From: a virus
Lineage: Duplodnaviria > Heunggongvirae > Uroviricota > Caudoviricetes
DNA length: 12,872 nucleotides
Strand: one strand, 5' to 3'
IMG/VR virus record: IMGVR_UViG_2737471845_000023
The notes below the pieces were generated by a model that ran no database searches, had not been told where the DNA came from, and saw nothing but the letters and a program-made list of their open reading frames with translations. Shown one piece after another: positions 100-10,028 of this stretch (within the stretch, counting starts at the first letter, position 1; each line of letters starts with the position of its first letter). Position numbers and translations under genes: made by a program.

Positions 100-3780
<3,681 letters not shown>

Positions 3781-3806
<26 letters not shown>

Positions 3807-4326
3807 TCAGCAACCCCGGTATCAGTTCATCCAGCGCGGCTGCTTTGTTCATGGCTTTGATGATATCCCGTTTCAGGAAATCAACATGTCGGTTTTCCAG
3901 TTCCGGAAAACGCCGCTGCACCGACAGGGGGATCCCGTCGAGAATACTGGCAATTTCACCTGCGATCCGCGACAGCACGAAAGTACAGAATGCGGTTTCC
4001 ACCACTTCAGCGGAGTCTCTGGCATTTTTCAGCTCCTGTGCGTCGGCCTGCGCACGCGTAAGTCGATGGCGTTCGTACTCAATAGTCCCTGGCTGGAGAT
4101 CTGTCTCGCTGGCCTGCCGCAGTTCTTCAACTTCCCGGCGCAGCTTTTCGTTCTCAATTTCAGCATCCCTTTCGGCATACCATCTTATAACGGCGGCAGA
4201 GTCATAAAGCACCTCATTACCCTTGCCACCGCCTCGCAGAACGGGCATTCCCTGTTCCTGCCAGTTCTGAATGGTACGGATACTCGCACCGAAAATGTCA
4301 GCCAGCTGCTTTTTGTTGACTTCCAT
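3781..4326 (-). CDS. Nu1: terminase small subunit (lambda gpNu1), 181 aa
   Basis: 181-aa ORF MEVNKKQLADIFGASIRTIQNWQEQGMPVLRGGGKGNEVLYDSAAV... recognised as lambda Nu1 (winged-helix DNA-binding N-terminus); sits directly downstream of cos. Confidence 0.97.
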
Positions 4327-4560
4327 TGTTCATTCCACGGCCAAAAACAGAGAAAGGAAACGACAGAGGCCCAAAAGCTCGTTTTCAGCACCTGTCGTTT
4401 CCTTTCTTTTCAGGGGGTATTTTAAATAAAAACATTAAGTTACGACGAAGAAGAACGGAAATGCCTTAAACCGGAAAATTTTCATAAATAGCGAAAACCC
4501 GCGAGGTCGCCGCCCCGTAACCTGTCGGATCGCCGGAAAGGACCCGCAAAATGATAATAA
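4327..4560 (-). other. cos: lambda-type cos packaging site: cosB (Nu1-binding R1-R3 repeats), cosN (12-nt cohesive-end sequence at 4504-4515), cosQ-side flank
   Basis: Plus strand 4504-4515 reads AGGTCGCCGCCC, the reverse complement of the lambda left cohesive end GGGCGGCGACCT, with flanks cccgcg / cgtaacctgtcgg matching lambda. Three copies of the Nu1-binding motif CGTTTCC(T/G)TTCT lie between cosN and Nu1 (about 4347-4365 rev, 4394-4409 fwd, 4441-4460 rev). Confidence 0.9.
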
Positions 4561-4714
4561 TTATCATCTGCATGTCACAACGTGCATCTACGCCATCAAA
4601 CCACGTCAAATAATCAATTATGACGCAGATATCGTATTAATTGATCTGCATCAACTTAACGTAAAAACAACTTCAGACAATACAAATCAGCGACACTGAA
4701 TACGGGACAACCTC

Positions 4715-4948
4715 ATGTCAACGAAGAACAGAACCCGCAGAACAACAACCCGCAACATCCGCTTTCCTAACCAAATGATTGAACAAATTAACATCGCTCT
4801 TGAGCAAAAAGGGTCCGGGAATTTCTCAGCCTGGGTCATTGAAGCCTGCCGCCGGAGACTGTGCTCAGAAAAAAGAGTTTCTTCTGAAGCAAACAAAGAA
4901 AAGAGTGACATTACTGAATTGCTCAGAAAACAGGTCAGACCAGATTGA
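4715..4948 (+). CDS. small ribbon-helix-helix (Arc/MetJ/CopG-like) DNA-binding protein, 77 aa; probable YnfO-like cos-proximal ORF
   Basis: ATG ORF with Arg-rich N-terminus MSTKNRTRRTTTRNIRFP followed by a strand-helix-helix pattern (NIRFPNQMIEQINIALEQKG / NFSAWVIEACRRRL). An equivalent ORF is present at the lambda right end in the same position and orientation, as I recall it. SD is weak. Confidence 0.7.
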   Translation: MSTKNRTRRTTTRNIRFPNQMIEQINIALEQKGSGNFSAWVIEACRRRLCSEKRVSSEANKEKSDITELLRKQVRPD

Positions 4949-5005
4949 AGCAATTTAGATAATCGTGCAGACTACGCCCCCTCATATCACATGGAAGGTT
5001 TATCT

Positions 5006-5416
5006 ATGGATCAGGTAGTCATTTTTAAACAAATATTTGATAAAGTTCGAAACGATTTAAACTATCAATGGTTTTATTCTGAGCTAAAACGTCACAATGT
5101 CTCACATTACATTTACTATTTAGCCACAGAGAATGTTCATATTGTATTAAAAAATGATAATACAGTGTTATTAAAGGGCCTAAAAAACATTGTGTCTGTC
5201 AAATTTTCAAAGGATAGGCATCTTATAGAAACGACCTCTAATAAGCTGAAATCCAGAGAGATCACATTTCAGGAATACAGAAGAAACCTTGCTAAAGCAG
5301 GAGTTTTTCGGTGGGTTACAAATATCCACGAACAAAAAAGATATTACTATACCTTTGATAATTCATTACTATTTACTGAAAGCATCCAGAAAACTACACA
5401 GATCTTACCACGCTAA
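5006..5416 (+). CDS. ydfO: DUF1398-family protein YdfO-like, 136 aa (ORF-track start at 4991 is probably an N-terminal over-extension)
   Basis: [49 protein letters not shown]... recognised as Qin prophage YdfO. ATG at 5006 has GGAAGG about 8 nt upstream. AT-rich, low-GC moron-like composition. Confidence 0.85.
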
Positions 5417-5510
5417 ACCATAACGTCCGGCTTCTCTCACTCCTGAGCCGGACTGCATTGGTTTAATAAAAACCATCAACAATTGTGATTTAGATATTCG
5501 GAACCATTCA

Positions 5511-5540
5511 AATATAACAAAACCCCGTAAAAACGAGGTT
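5511..5540 (-). terminator. candidate intrinsic terminator downstream of gnsB
   Basis: Minus-strand RNA would form a 6-bp stem CCUCGU / ACGGGG (one G-U pair) with a U5 loop, followed by UUUUGUUAUAUUU. Confidence 0.45.
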
Positions 5541-5567
5541 TATGGATAAATTTTATTATTGAATACA

Positions 5568-5741
5568 TCAGATTAAATTAATCTTGACATCATAGCTTTC
5601 AAGACCCGTCATTTTTTCCCGTGCGGTAAACTGAATACTGGTAACTTCTTTCCCGGTCTTTTTCTTAAGTTCAATAATTTTTTTTGTTATATATTCAGAA
5701 ATATCTGCTTCTGCTTTTGTTTTTAAGTTTTCAATATTCAT
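5568..5741 (-). CDS. gnsB: GnsA/GnsB-family small protein, 57 aa
   Basis: ORF below the track cutoff, translated by hand: MNIENLKTKAEADISEYITKKIIELKKKTGKEVTSIQFTAREKMTGLESYDVKINLI. Matches E. coli GnsB (Qin) as I recall it. SD GAGGAA immediately upstream; an alternative ATG one codon upstream at 5744. Confidence 0.85.
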   Translation of the reverse strand: MNIENLKTKAEADISEYITKKIIELKKKTGKEVTSIQFTAREKMTGLESYDVKINLI

Positions 5742-5912
5742 CATTTCCTCTTTTAGTCTGTTATGACTTTCCAGTTACACAGTAAGTCGATTATATGGTG
5801 CAAACGTGTAAAAGATAAGATGAAACATCGCAATAATCAACATACGATAGTCTAAATTTTACACAAACAGACAAAGAAAATTTTCCTGAATTATCAATAC
5901 AATAGCATCAAA

Positions 5913-6143
5913 TCAACTCAAGAGCCTTATTGCTGCTTCCAGAATTTCTTCTGAAGTAACATGTCGATCCGCGGCTACATAAATGACTTTATGATCTCCG
6001 GTCAGAGATGGAAACCCTGCGGCCATTACAGTAAGGTGTGTTTTTTCGCCATTTGGATATTCACGCATGATGGTGTTAACTCCAGTCATCGCTGGCACTA
6101 CCACTGCAGGTTCTGAGTTAAAAAAAACTATGATTTTTTTCAT
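5913..6143 (-). CDS. small hypothetical protein, probably YnfN-like (76 aa from the ATG at 6143; a 51-aa version from the ATG at 6068 is also possible)
   Basis: ORF MKKIIVFFNSEPAVVVPAMTGVNTIMREYPNGEKTHLTVMAAGFPSLTGDHKVIYVAADRHVTSEEILEAAIRLLS. Position between gnsB and cspI matches ynfN in Qin, and the internal Met gives 51 aa, the size I recall for YnfN. No strong SD at either start. Confidence 0.6.
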   Translation of the reverse strand: MKKIIVFFNSEPAVVVPAMTGVNTIMREYPNGEKTHLTVMAAGFPSLTGDHKVIYVAADRHVTSEEILEAAIRLLS

Positions 6144-6185
6144 GATGTTACCGTAGTATGTGAGTATCCATCGAATAGATACCAA

Positions 6186-6208
6186 GCAAAAAAGCTCCCG
6201 AAGGAGCC
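6186..6208 (-). terminator. intrinsic terminator downstream of cspI (UUCG-tetraloop hairpin plus U-tract)
   Basis: Minus-strand RNA GGCUCC-UUCG-GGAGCU followed by UUUUUUGCUU. Confidence 0.6.
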
Positions 6209-6414
6209 TTCATTTTCACTTTTTTAAATCCAACGACAGACGGCTGGCATTTAAGTATTGTGAAATATTATCAAATGTAATCATCATTGATTTACAAAAG
6301 ATACATTTTGCCCCGAAAGGATTCATGTCAGAAACATCAAAAGATGATGTTCTATACTGGGAACCATGACAACACGGGCATCTAAAGTGAATATGGTTTG
6401 TAATATTGTCTACC

Positions 6415-6627
6415 TCAAAGCGCCACTACATGAACAGCGGCAGGACCTTTAGGTCCGTTCTCAATACCAAATTCAACTTCCTGATTCTCAGTTAATGTTT
6501 TGAAATCGTTGCTCTGAATTGCTGAGAAATGGACAAACACATCTTTGCTGCCATCTTTCGGCGTGATGAAACCAAAACCTTTTTCAGGGTTAAACCATTT
6601 CACTAAACCAGTCATTTTGTTAGACAT
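6415..6627 (-). CDS. cspI: cold-shock protein, CspA family (CspI), 70 aa
   Basis: [70 protein letters not shown] with the RNP1 motif KGFGFI and RNP2-like VFVHF; matches K-12 CspI as recalled. SD AAGGTAATAATTATG. Confidence 0.93.
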
Positions 6628-6990
6628 AATTATTACCTTTTGAAGAAATTAGCCCTTGGGCAGAATGGTCCGAAAAAAAATATCAGAGAGAAAAACCAAC
6701 AAGGAAATCTCAAGAGGTACAAATAATAAAATTATAACAATGACTGCTTCAGATAAATTTGTAACAAACCAGAACACCATTAACGCATGATTAACCACCC
6801 ATAGCAAGGATTACTTTTGTAAAGAAAAACACAGCAATGAAAGAATAGCTTTATTTATTAATAATAACGTGTCATTCTGATTAAGACCTTTTATCTTACC
6901 CTTAAGATTTCAGGAATTTTGGCTCATGGAAGAGTCCTTTTTATTTAAATTTTACATTCCGCGATGTAAATGTTCCGATTTAATATTACC

Positions 6991-8014
<1,024 letters not shown>

Positions 8015-8018
<4 letters not shown>

Positions 8019-8546: not shown

Positions 8547-8765
8547 ATCCTCACCCCGATGTACACGGATGGTGCAATATGTTTGAAAAGATCGGAGTCT
8601 ACGGGGTAGTTTTGACAGCACACGTTGTTCTCAACGGCGCTAAAAAAACATACACATTAAAAATGTGGGTAATTATTTTGAAAGAAAGTCATATATAAAA
8701 TAATAATACGAGAAATGTTTTCATATTTAGTGTACTGTATACGGCCATTTATACAGGAAAAGCCT

Positions 8766-8936
8766 ATGTCAGAACGTAAAAACTCAAAATCACGCCGTAA
8801 TTATCTCGTTAAATGTTCCTGCCCAAACTGCACCCAAGAGTCAGAACACAGTTTTTCAAGAGTACAAAAAGGTGCCCTTTTGATCTGCCCTCATTGCAAC
8901 AAAGTATTCCAGACAAATCTTAAAGCTGTAGCCTGA
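8766..8936 (+). CDS. small zinc-ribbon protein (CxxC...CxxC), 56 aa; possibly the Qin small protein YnfU
   Basis: MSERKNSKSRRNYLVKCSCPNCTQESEHSFSRVQKGALLICPHCNKVFQTNLKAVA with two CxxC pairs about 20 residues apart. SD AGGAAAA 7 nt before the ATG at 8766. On the strand opposite to the late operon. Confidence 0.55.
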   Translation: MSERKNSKSRRNYLVKCSCPNCTQESEHSFSRVQKGALLICPHCNKVFQTNLKAVA

Positions 8937-9016: not shown

Positions 9017-9299
9017 TTGAGATTGTGGTGCTTTTTGTGGGAGTCATCCACTTACGCACTTTGTTTTGCCATGCCAGCAGTTAGCTTCTGCTGTAAAACT
9101 ATTCATGCAGCAAACCTGCACTTCACCACAATGGTTAGCATACTTTTCCTGATTAAGATTTTGCCAAATATGCTAGCCATTGTTTCATGTATTGGACCTC
9201 CTTACTTTTTATTAAAGAGATCCAATATTCACTACTCTGTCCGTATCTCTACTCAGGCATCAGCCTTCTTCGTTATCGTATACAGACGAGCGATGAATT

Positions 9300-9515
9300 T
9301 TAATCAGTAATGATGACATTTGCTGCTGCAGGACCTTTAGCACCACTCTCTATAGAGAAGGTAACCTTTTGACCTTCAAATAAGGTTCGATAATTATCAT
9401 TCTGAATCGCAGAAAAATGCACAAACACATCTTTACTACCATCAACAGGAGAAATAAAGCCGAAACCTTTATCAGCGTTAAACCATTTTACTAAACCAGT
9501 CATTTTATTTGACAT
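9300..9515 (-). CDS. cspB: cold-shock protein, CspA family (CspB), 71 aa
   Basis: [71 protein letters not shown]; matches K-12 CspB as recalled. SD AAGGAA. Confidence 0.93.
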
Positions 9516-9815
9516 TCTACATTCCTTAACTTGAGCCTTTCGGCATAAATGGTTTGCATAACAGAAACGACTTCGTACTTAATTGGAGAGACTCAAAGAA
9601 GGAATAAGTGAATAACACCTGAAATGAGAACTGCTTTAGTAAACTACTTCGTATATCGTCTGTTCTTCAAACCGACGCAATCATTAACGCATAGTTGAAC
9701 ATATGAAGCAATGTTTATTTTAGACATCCAGCCATCTTCAACCCCATCAAAAAACTATAGCTTTCTTCAGGAACGTGTGTATAGTGCGCCAAGTTATCAG
9801 TATTAAGGAATTTTT

Positions 9816-10028
9816 TTGTCCCGTAAAATGACAGGAATTGTCAAAACCTTTGACGGCAAAAGCGGCAAGGGTCTTATCACCCCATCCGATGGTCGTATCG
9901 ATGTCCAGCTTCATGTCTCAGCGCTCAATCTCCGCGATGCAGAAGAAATTACCACCGGATTACGCGTGGAATTTTGCCGGATAAATGGTCTGCGTGGCCC
10001 TTCAGCTGCCAATGTTTACCTTTCATGA
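9816..10028 (+). CDS. cspF: CspF/CspH-type divergent cold-shock-domain protein, 70 aa, TTG start
   Basis: [70 protein letters not shown]: cold-shock-domain fold with a degenerate RNP1 motif, as in CspF/CspH. TTG at 9816 with AAGGAA 7 nt upstream. Divergent from cspB as in Qin. I cannot separate CspF from CspH by memory. Confidence 0.85.

Follow-up and report, generated by a model that had tools for sequence, protein, structure and literature searches.

A Qin-type cold-shock and stress gene cassette in the bor slot of a lambdoid prophage

The window, a 12,872-nt stretch of viral DNA (Caudoviricetes; IMG/VR record IMGVR_UViG_2737471845_000023), reads on its minus strand as a lambdoid prophage. 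By sequence comparison, positions 5006–6627 are the already known and annotated cold-shock/stress genes that Qin-type lambdoid prophages carry in E. coli, and the stretch is therefore an ordinary one. Two parts can be separated. A lambda-type backbone (approximately 4327–5435) consists of cos and the plus-strand gene pair ynfO–ydfO, both also found in lambda. A mobile unit of approximately 1.55 kb, cspI–ynfQ–ynfR–ynfN–gnsB (about 5436–6990), occupies the bor slot of lambda. The preferred reading, to which we give a probability of roughly 70%, is that this unit is a stress moron cassette on a lambda backbone that would help the lysogen in the cold or under stress, with transcription proposed to run in two parts.

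The packaging end of the region is marked by cosN, the 12-nt lambda cohesive-end sequence, at 4504–4515 on the minus strand, an exact match to GGGCGGCGACCT for which 0.05 matches are expected by chance. The packaging gene Nu1 lies at 3781–4326, terminase A is full, lambda-like and 641 aa long, and the lysis gene Rz (rzpQ) lies at 6991–7488. Comparison with lambda by blastn gives 98% DNA identity over window positions 1830–4877 and 84% over 4932–5435, and no lambda match for 5436–6990, the site that bor occupies in lambda. The lambda bor region (Rz–bor–lambdap78–lambdap79–cos) has the same place between the lysis genes and cos, and lambda shares with the window a lambda-type cos, Nu1, A and a DUF1398 gene oriented opposite to the late genes. 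Each phage carries a lysogen-expressed accessory gene in the bor slot; however, bor is a lipoprotein gene antisense to late transcription, whereas the window has a five-gene cassette in the sense direction, and lambda has approximately 560 extra bases between its ynfO-like and ydfO-like parts. Bor has a role in serum resistance.

The gene ynfO (4715–4948, plus strand; 77 aa) runs antisense to late transcription and encodes a DUF3950 protein of the YlcI/YnfO family (PF13132, E 2.7e-21; NCBIfam NF041551; RefSeq annotation) that is identical in K-12; its DNA is common to lambda as far as position 4877. The gene ydfO (5006–5416, plus strand; 136 aa) is a full-length DUF1398 member (PF07166, E 1.7e-46, model positions 1–119 of 119 covered), and its product is identical to the K-12 copy and matches PDB 2HH8 (‘hypothetical protein ydfO’) at 135 of 136 residues (E 9.5e-87). 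A PDB profile search with YdfO found 2HH8 itself only, and the AF2 model, for which the alignment was shallow (identities of 71% or more), is poor, with a pLDDT of 49. The names ‘head protein’ (PHROG) and ‘putative envelope protein’ (lambda) are unsupported and were not adopted. A homologue of the C-terminal part of lambdap78, ydfO is a lambda-backbone gene, and together with ynfO, at 84–98% identity to lambda, it is placed outside the mobile unit. Downstream of ydfO is an unstranded hairpin without a U-tract (5425–5453; −19.1 kcal/mol, z −5.0, with none of 200 shuffles as stable). As lambda homology stops within this hairpin (at approximately 5435), it forms the junction between backbone and cassette.

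The sequence-only reading had described 5006–6627 as a low-GC moron block between the lysis genes and cos; its observation is partly confirmed and its interpretation partly supported. The position and composition stand, with a GC content of 0.35 for 5006–6627 (0.347 for the cassette alone) against 0.541 for Nu1 and A and 0.469 for the lysis genes. The limits of the block do not, as the promoter and 5′UTR of cspI and the whole of ynfO fall outside them. The genes that it named (ydfO, gnsB, ynfN and cspI) are all present, but ynfQ and ynfR were missed. Its assignment to the bor slot is correct for cspI to gnsB and incorrect for ydfO, a homologue of which lambda carries next to bor. Nor is there one coordinated block, given the lambda-backbone character of ydfO and ynfO and the presence of a DUF1398 gene in only four of 46 species-level YnfN loci. 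The moron reading is supported for the cspI-to-gnsB part. The DNA of 5436–6990 is additional, lies between conserved phage genes and is absent from that place in the close relative lambda; it is low in GC, it has a cspA-type 5′UTR and, as predicted from likeness to cspB and cspG, a promoter of its own, and two putative terminators (hairpin plus U-tract), here termed T1 and T2, are seen in the sequence. All five of its genes share the orientation of the late genes.

The same genes in the same order, orientation and spacing make up K-12 Qin (nohA–ynfO–ydfO–gnsB–ynfN–ynfR–ynfQ–cspI–rzpQ; b1548–b1553, b4533, b4724, b4749), which is 99.3% identical in DNA to window positions 4330–7000. The two differ in that the packaging region of Qin is truncated, nohA being followed by tail-fibre genes, whereas the window has a full lambda-like terminase, and in that ynfN is frameshifted in Qin and intact (76 aa) in the window. 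E. coli IAI1 is 99.9% identical to the window, with every gene annotated there by RefSeq. The cassette is found, as two sequence variants, in 2101 of 5426 complete E. coli genomes (approximately 39%) and in six sequenced phages. The cassette of Tritos, an LF82 prophage, is 99.8% identical to that of the window, and both Tritos and PhiR42_1 carry the cassette and have retained virion formation.

The first gene of the cassette, cspI (6415–6627, minus strand), encodes a 70-aa CspA-family cold-shock protein that matches the Pfam CSD model PF00313 over its full length (E 1.6e-31), contains the RNP1 (KGFGFI) and RNP2 (VFVHF) motifs and is identical to the K-12 copy. It is preceded by a 5′UTR of approximately 146 nt (6628–6773, minus strand) of the cspA RNA thermoregulator type; the Rfam RF01766 match spans 6388–6773 at 112.8 bits (gathering score 78; E 9e-29; model positions 1–428). 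A promoter is predicted at 6779–6807 on the minus strand (−35 TTGCTA, 17-nt spacer, extended −10 TGcGTTAAT) from its likeness to the cspB and cspG promoters: when the upstream regions of the three genes are set side by side, TTGCT...ATGCGTTAAT is common to all. For the K-12 cspI gene, identical to that of the window, induction on temperature downshift is reported by Wang, Yamanaka & Inouye (1999), cited in PMC7406224. Qin has a further low-GC csp moron, the cspB–cspF pair, between Q and the holin gene (window approximately 9284–10028). It has the same Rfam cspA thermoregulator (158.8 bits at 9284–9676) and a promoter motif near-identical to that of cspI, and like the cspI cassette it is associated in the literature with lysogen expression and a long-term stationary-phase phenotype. 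In contrast to the cassette, the two csp genes are divergent and have cspG/cspH as their paralogues, and the pair lacks genes of the ymcF, ynfN or gns type.

The next gene, ynfQ (6216–6404, minus strand; 62 aa), begins with an ATT codon 10 nt past the cspI stop, the same start and spacing as in its paralogue ymcF. The match to PF23641 (E 1.3e-11) is limited to the C-terminal 36 aa (model positions 28–62), and the full ORF contains CPCC...CIFC, four cysteines in a zinc-ribbon pattern, as in YmcF-like proteins. YnfQ is identical to the K-12 copy and is named ‘cold shock small protein YmcF’ or ynfQ by RefSeq; the ‘ynfQ’ of PMC6001520 is another ORF, now ynfT. Five nucleotides past the ynfQ stop begins T1, an intrinsic-terminator-like hairpin (6188–6210, minus strand) of the form AAGGCUCC-UUCG-GGAGCUUU followed by a U-run, for which a 61-nt stretch, with its hairpin at 6191–6210, folds at −15 kcal/mol (z −1.7). 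A counterpart, hairpin and U-tract after the stop of the ymcF-like gene, is present in Escherichia, Citrobacter and Klebsiella/Raoultella and at chromosomal ymcF, although among the 46 loci compared a T1-like hairpin is absent from many YnfN loci of other genera, for example Scandinavium. The seven pairs of the core are paired in 7/7 distinct sequences with one compensatory series (UA/UG/CG); this covariation concerns one pair only and is equalled by 73 of 500 shuffles, and so gives weak support. Since T1 lies approximately 200 nt downstream of cspI, after ynfQ and within ynfR, it does not belong to cspI alone, and it is proposed to be a leaky terminator between cspI–ynfQ and ynfR–ynfN. The RefSeq-annotated ynfR (6148–6213, minus strand; 21 aa, MKAPSGAFLLGIYSMDTHILR) has the T1 hairpin and U-tract as its codons 2–9 and stops 4 nt short of the ynfN ATG. 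YnfR differs from that of K-12 by one residue (I12V), its ATG is missing from most Citrobacter cassettes, and the ORF is not kept outside Escherichia.

The window carries ynfN (5913–6143, minus strand) in its intact 76-aa form, which is conserved in Enterobacteriaceae and matches PHROG 3425 over its full length (E 7e-54). The K-12 allele has lost one nucleotide from a T8 run, which shifts the frame, and is annotated as 51 aa. The only matches of YnfN are PHROGs of no assigned function, with no hit in Pfam, NCBIfam, PADLOC or PDB; the AF2 model has a pLDDT of 88, and a structure search found no structural neighbour for it. The gene has neither a promoter nor a terminator of its own, and no terminator separates it from gnsB.

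After a 171-nt spacer follows gnsB (5568–5741, minus strand), whose 57-aa product belongs to the GnsA/GnsB family (PF08178, E 3.3e-35), is homologous to the GnsA crystal structures 4XO1/4XO2 (E 5e-20) and is identical to the K-12 copy; in DNA the gene is 73% identical to chromosomal gnsA. Within the otherwise diverged spacer, the promoter-like element TTGATT-N17-TATCTT (5812–5840, minus strand) forms an island conserved in Escherichia and Citrobacter, and from this conservation we infer it to be the gnsB promoter; it was not detected by a consensus promoter scan. An E. coli-specific TATAAT at 5790–5795 was also considered, but it is not conserved in Citrobacter and the conserved element is therefore preferred. 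The gene ends at the intrinsic terminator T2 (5511–5541, minus strand), a 9-bp stem followed by UUUUGUUAUAUUU that was found by the terminator scan at 5541–5520; a 63-nt fold of the hairpin at 5520–5541 gives −14.1 kcal/mol (z −3.0). The hairpins that the sequence-only reading had placed at T1 and T2 thus both fold, but the idea that each gene has its own terminator fails for cspI and ynfN.

The order of the cassette is paralleled outside any prophage by the chromosomal cspG–ymcF–ymcE–gnsA locus at 22 min, which has cspH divergent to it. In both, a cspA-family gene is followed after 10 nt by an ATT-initiated YmcF-family ORF, a hairpin with a U-tract, a 76-aa ORF and a gns gene, and the csp plus ymcF and the gns parts are 73–74% identical in DNA. 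The middle genes are unrelated, as chromosomal YmcE is hydrophobic, prophage YnfN is soluble and the two do not align. The chromosomal ORFs overlap and gnsA is without a separate promoter region, in contrast to the spacer before gnsB in the prophage. More widely, the core csp–ymcF–ynfN recurs across Enterobacteriaceae: in the 46 species-level YnfN loci a csp gene is upstream in 37, a ymcF-like ORF in 36 and both in 32, while a gns gene is downstream in 17. Synteny between genera is kept at 50–75% protein identity, and in other genera csp–ymcF–ynfN adjoins a divergent csp pair in a chromosomal setting outside prophage.

The published expression and phenotype data all come from K-12 Qin or from Tritos, 99.3% and 99.8% identical to the window, respectively. 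Expression in the lysogen or in the cold had been named by the sequence-only reading as a test of a host-benefit role, and it is already answered: CspI and YnfN in the lysogen of Tritos exceed the prophage background 93-fold and 27-fold, respectively (PMC9928086), and YnfR-SPA of K-12 rises strongly after cold shock (PMC6001520). The gene gnsB is outside the Tritos set at least 5-fold above background (PMC9928086), which leaves coordinated expression of the whole cassette unproven. Induction by AZT is 6.5-fold for cspI, 5.9-fold for ynfQ and 5.8-fold for ynfN, and the same three genes depend on SspA by 38-, 42- and 51-fold (PMC11228462). In long-term stationary phase the fold changes of cspI and ynfN run in parallel, and a cspI knockout is outcompeted, at 37 °C and not in the cold (PMC7406224). 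What is described for GnsB comes from overexpression only: growth that is defective at low temperature is rescued by a gnsB plasmid (bioRxiv 10.1101/2024.03.27.586906). The fatty acids were measured for gnsA, whose expression restored the levels of 16:1 and 18:1, and the same preprint, citing Sugai 2001, reports a rise in unsaturated fatty acids for gnsB too.

In the preferred reading, a cspA-type sigma-70 promoter would give an mRNA with a long thermoregulated 5′UTR, through which cspI and the ATT-initiated ynfQ would be expressed chiefly in the cold, with further expression in long-term stationary phase and following replication stress. Most transcripts would end at the conserved T1 directly past ynfQ, and the fraction that reads through would carry ynfR–ynfN, the close spacing of which suggests translational coupling. 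Because there is no terminator between ynfN and gnsB, read-through could reach gnsB, which apparently also has its own promoter, with its transcript ending at T2. CspI would act as an RNA chaperone and GnsB would raise unsaturated fatty acids, so that together they should aid the lysogen in the cold or under stress. Since E. coli has several cold-inducible csp genes that are redundant, one prophage copy may bring only a small benefit. The leakiness of T1, the co-transcription of cspI, ynfQ and ynfN, the gnsB promoter and a net benefit at low temperature are all put forward here as probable features of the cassette.

A more specific version, which we regard as tentative and rather unlikely, holds that the conserved hairpin past the ymcF/ynfQ stop is a regulated attenuator at which read-through is set by the Csp product, by translation of ynfQ, or by both. 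CspI, the first product of the cassette, might then act as an antiterminator at T1; CspA-family proteins are reportedly transcription antiterminators, in work attributed to Bae et al. in 2000. Alternatively, or in addition, read-through might respond to ribosomes that complete ynfQ, a gene weakly initiated at its ATT start, 5 nt ahead of the T1 stem.

It is unlikely, to a somewhat greater degree, that the cassette chiefly benefits the phage and not the lysogen, with Csp chaperones or antiterminators and altered lipids aiding late expression, lysis or assembly in the cold. The cassette lies in the path of the late transcript (Q, cspB, lysis genes, cspI to gnsB, cos, terminase), and during lytic growth it would thus be strongly expressed by Q-antiterminated transcription; its five genes are oriented accordingly, and the terminator scan found no minus-strand terminator in the Rz–cspI interval. 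The second cspA-type element, cspB (9284–9676), between Q and the holin gene, and the capacity of PhiR42_1 and Tritos to make virions point the same way, as does the position of the cassette always 3′ of the lysis genes: the same four-gene cassette is found there in prophages with GpA-type and with HNH/TerS/TerL-type packaging modules. However, a cold-shock promoter and 5′UTR and terminators of its own would be needless for late-operon expression, the genes are active in lysogens without induction and also in K-12 Qin, a defective prophage, and the same gene set occurs on the chromosome outside prophages, as cspG–ymcF–ymcE–gnsA and elsewhere as csp–ymcF–ynfN.

We consider it improbable that the cassette is a neutral hitch-hiker, left over after lambdoid phages recombined with the chromosomal cspG locus and not under selection for any role in the prophage. 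The paralogous arrangement of that locus, the frameshifted ynfN of K-12, the restriction of the ynfR ORF to Escherichia and the number of uncharacterised proteins would all be in keeping with such a remnant, but the ORFs and regulatory elements remain intact, as two variants, in approximately 39% of the complete E. coli genomes, synteny persists across genera, and a competition phenotype has been measured for cspI (PMC7406224).

Most improbable is a toxin–antitoxin or anti-phage defence module with GnsB as toxin and a small neighbour such as YnfN as antitoxin: the Pfam and RefSeq titles (‘GnsA/GnsB toxin’ and ‘addiction module toxin’), the listing of ymcE–gnsA as a type II pair (PMC8484670, citing Wei 2015), the place of the 76-aa YnfN in the position of the 76-aa YmcE and weak matches of the CSD to defence-associated models (PADLOC CSD_V, 3e-15; retron Se72 effector, 50 bits against a cut-off of 82) are outweighed by the undetectable similarity of YnfN to YmcE, a homologue of which is found in 0 of 46 YnfN loci and not in the window, by a gns gene downstream in so few YnfN loci that the pair is not obligate, by the distance of gnsB from ynfN and the separate promoter-like element of gnsB, which do not resemble a tightly coupled toxin–antitoxin operon, by the generic CSD as the only PADLOC-DB match (the other six of the seven block proteins had no hit at E ≤0.1), and by gnsA and gnsB plasmids that rescue growth and do not kill (bioRxiv 10.1101/2024.03.27.586906). 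YnfN was accordingly rejected as an equivalent of the YmcE antitoxin.

The value of the locus as a discovery is small, since it is present in K-12, annotated gene by gene in RefSeq and has published expression data for lysogens, cold, stationary phase and DNA damage. It is nevertheless a common cassette in which five of the seven block proteins are uncharacterised (PMC11551758), and the statement of the sequence-only reading that YdfO and YnfN are without known function agrees with this. The conserved form of YnfN is 76 aa long and the K-12 reference allele is frameshifted, which is relevant to work on YnfN in K-12. The conserved terminator in the middle of the cassette offers a simple regulatory hypothesis. 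If it were a true attenuator, csp–ymcF–ynfN would be a self-timed two-stage cold/stress operon of the prophages and chromosomes of Enterobacteriaceae, and YnfN would be its late effector.

The block lies in a lambdoid prophage whose late genes are on the minus strand. The genes for the terminase large subunit, A (1881-3806, -), and Nu1 (3781-4326, -; Pfam Phage_Nu1, E 2e-101) are followed by an exact match to lambda cosN, GGGCGGCGACCT (4504-4515), and beyond the block lie the Rz gene rzpQ (DUF2514; 6991-7488, -) and the lysozyme gene (7485-8018, -). GC content falls to 0.30-0.40 between cos and Rz; the value of 0.35 for 5006-6627, against 0.54 for Nu1 and A and 0.47 for the lysis genes, bears out the low-GC block proposed here by the sequence-only reading. 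rzpQ contains an embedded 90-aa ORF in another frame (7041-7313, -) with a lipoprotein-like N-terminus (..LIVLTSC..), the counterpart of the o-spanin rzoQ annotated in K-12. The Rz-cspI spacer contains a plus-strand terminator-like hairpin with a T-run (6921-6946), antisense to the late genes, with no obvious plus-strand gene upstream.

By sequence comparison the block is the Qin locus of E. coli K-12 MG1655, already known. The order nohA-ynfO-ydfO-gnsB-ynfN-ynfR-ynfQ-cspI-rzpQ is the same, the window is 99.3% identical over 4330-7000, and the proteins CspI, GnsB, YdfO, YnfO and YnfQ are identical. The two differ in ynfN (5913-6143, -), which is intact in the window and in strain IAI1, where it encodes 76 aa; its product matches PHROG 3425 over its full length and has no match in Pfam or NCBIfam. 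In K-12 a T8 run close to the 5' end (6113-6120 in the window, ~5155-5161 in the K-12 record L004) has been shortened by one T, which explains why the annotated K-12 ynfN starts at an internal methionine and encodes 51 aa. The deletion takes away the conserved N-terminal 25 residues. The form conserved in Citrobacter and other genera is the 76-aa one, of which the 51-aa 'YnfN' of K-12 is a truncated version.

The four genes named by the sequence-only reading are all found: ynfN, ydfO (5006-5416, +; DUF1398, E 1.7e-46), gnsB (5568-5741, -; PF08178, E 3.3e-35) and cspI (6415-6627, -; CSD, E 1.6e-31). YdfO matches its NMR structure, PDB 2HH8, at 135/136 residues, and its AF2 model is of poor quality. 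Three genes were missing from that list, ynfO (DUF3950; 4715-4948, +), ynfR (21 aa; 6148-6213, -) and ynfQ (62 aa; 6216-6404, -; Pfam YmcF-like), all annotated by RefSeq on the 99.9%-identical IAI1. The 200 nt from cspI to the second hairpin are not empty but occupied by ynfQ: a 36-aa ORF (6216-6326) gives a match (E 1.3e-11) to Pfam YmcF-like, in the C-terminal half of the model, and the ORF's frame is open upstream to an ATT codon 10 nt past the cspI stop. In K-12, ynfO, ydfO, ynfN, ynfR and ynfQ were listed as uncharacterised in a 2024 survey (PMC11551758). Genomic SELEX placed a PdhR-box-like site, AAcaGGTcagACCAgaT (10/14), in the ynfO > ydfO < gnsB region of K-12 Qin, at ~1635002-1635148 in an older K-12 coordinate frame (PMC7660256). 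Elsewhere in the window ynfU (PF23499, a putative zinc-binding small protein; 8715-8936, +; L001 10437-10607) lies between cspB and holin on the opposite strand, and YnfU-family ORFs recur beside the cassette in Citrobacter-type prophages (L007-L011).

The chromosomal cspG-ymcF-ymcE-gnsA locus has a parallel arrangement, with 73-74% DNA identity for csp plus ymcF and for gns; the middle genes differ, as YmcE and YnfN do not align. The rare ATT start of ynfQ is also annotated for ymcF (2185-2373 in the chromosomal record L003), each 10 nt past the preceding csp stop, which GAGG or AAGG overlaps.

Comparison with lambda DE3 (record L005; blastn) separates backbone from cassette. Identity is 98% over 1830-4877, spanning A, Nu1, cos and most of ynfO, and 84% over 4932-5435, where ydfO is the counterpart of the C-terminal part of lambdap78; no match is found for 5436-6990, where lambda carries bor. 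Homology stops within a strong hairpin (5425-5453) after ydfO, and since it runs to 5435, ydfO lies outside the bor replacement. The assignment of bor to this slot was thus correct; the inclusion of ydfO among its replacements was not. Between its ynfO-like and ydfO-like sequences lambda has ~560 extra bases (L005 3048-3662; window 4877-4932), and its annotation differs from that of Qin, lambdap79 being on the opposite strand and lambdap78 a 177-aa 'putative envelope protein'. Among 46 species-level loci encoding a YnfN relative, a csp gene lies upstream on the same strand in 37, a ymcF-like ORF directly upstream in 36 and a gns gene downstream in 17, with all three present in 14. A DUF1398 gene occurs in only 4 of the 46, all lambda/Nu1-type Escherichia and Shigella loci, which, with the ynfO/ydfO part carried by lambda, argues against the block as a single unit. 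Citrobacter-type prophages carry the same four genes (csp, ymcF-like, ynfN, gns) after the lysis genes; because the adjacent packaging modules differ (GpA-type or HNH/Terminase_4/TerL-type), the mobile unit is csp-ymcF-ynfN(-gns). A MAG labelled Veillonella parvula (L012, JAGZPX010000007.1) contains the lysis genes and the cspI-to-gnsB region, its proteins there sharing 98-100% identity with those of the window, and a different ydfO variant (78%), and a 'Chryseobacterium sp.' assembly (L039, CACSKA010000011.1) contains an enterobacterial csp-ymcF-ynfN locus; both probably reflect misbinning or contamination in the public records.

Each gene had been credited with its own terminator. By scan and folding this holds for gnsB, where a hairpin (T2, 5520-5541, -) with a U-rich tail would make a good terminator, but ynfN has none and the hairpin assigned to cspI (T1) comes after ynfQ. 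The T1 core (6191-6210, -, U-run to 6188) begins 5 nt past the ynfQ stop and forms codons 2-9 of ynfR (..APSGAFLL..), upstream of ynfN. Equivalent hairpins with U-tracts lie 0-9 nt past the ymcF-like stop in Escherichia, eight Citrobacter loci and Klebsiella/Raoultella, the last with a different stem sequence; among the 46 loci the hairpin is absent in Scandinavium and some other genera. Another follows chromosomal ymcF within ymcE codons (L003 2377-2400, GGCUCC-CUCGU-GGAGCC plus U-tract, ..LPRGAFF..). Across the seven distinct sequences whose loop is 4 nt long, all seven pairs of the core stem are kept and one of them runs UA/UG/CG, a covariation that is not significant for so few sequences (73/500 shuffles as good). 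As the ynfR start codon is absent in most Citrobacter cassettes, the hairpin rather than the peptide is the conserved feature, and translation of RNA extending past the terminator may be how ymcE and ynfR originated.

Upstream of cspI, a promoter of the cspA type and a thermoregulated leader are predicted. Rfam gives a full cspA-thermoregulator match (6388-6773, 112.8 bits, gathering score 78), and the putative promoter (~6779-6807) has the TTGCT...ATGCGTTAAT motif common to cspB and cspG; both it and the 146-nt 5'UTR fall outside 5006-6627. A second match (9284-9676, -, 158.8 bits) is cspB, within a second low-GC csp moron (9284-10028) between the Q antiterminator gene and holin, where cspB is divergent to cspF and the pair has 76% DNA identity to chromosomal cspG/cspH.

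The main transcript would be cspI-ynfQ, with T1 leaky and ynfR-ynfN, possibly gnsB, expressed by read-through. The GAGG before ynfQ overlaps the cspI stop and its ATT start is weak. The end of ynfR and the ynfN ATG lie 4 nt apart, and no obvious Shine-Dalgarno sequence precedes the ATG, suggesting that ynfN is translationally coupled to ynfR; the 171-nt ynfN-gnsB spacer has a conserved TTGATT-N17-TATCTT element, and T2 marks the end of the cassette. In published data cspI, ynfQ and ynfN respond in parallel to AZT (6.5-, 5.9- and 5.8-fold) and depend alike on SspA (38-, 42- and 51-fold) (PMC11228462), and in long-term stationary phase cspI and ynfN change in parallel, and a cspI knockout loses in competition (PMC7406224).

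The cassette might instead serve the phage, as it lies within the late transcript path with no minus-strand terminator found between Rz and cspI; its own putative promoter, its chromosomal paralogues and the expression seen from prophages that are uninduced or defective make this unlikely. Neutral cargo is less probable still for a cassette kept in 2101 of 5426 complete E. coli genomes and across genera. A toxin-antitoxin or defence module, suggested mostly by database names, is very improbable, as it fails on adjacency and homology and PADLOC gives a generic CSD match only.

The sequence-only reading, which allowed a host benefit, was largely correct but incomplete in observation and partly supported in interpretation, and published work already covers its proposed tests for the most part. 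Lysogen-state expression is published for the Tritos cassette of LF82, 99.8% identical to that of the window (CspI 93-fold and YnfN 27-fold over prophage background; PMC9928086), and cold induction for YnfR-SPA (PMC6001520). A relA fadR strain regains growth at low temperature with gnsA and gnsB plasmids, and gnsA expression restores its 16:1 and 18:1 levels (bioRxiv 10.1101/2024.03.27.586906). The cassette would join an RNA chaperone to a membrane-fluidity modulator, to the benefit of the lysogen. A role for T1 as an attenuator, responsive to Csp proteins or to translation and giving a two-stage operon, has a probability of roughly 0.2.
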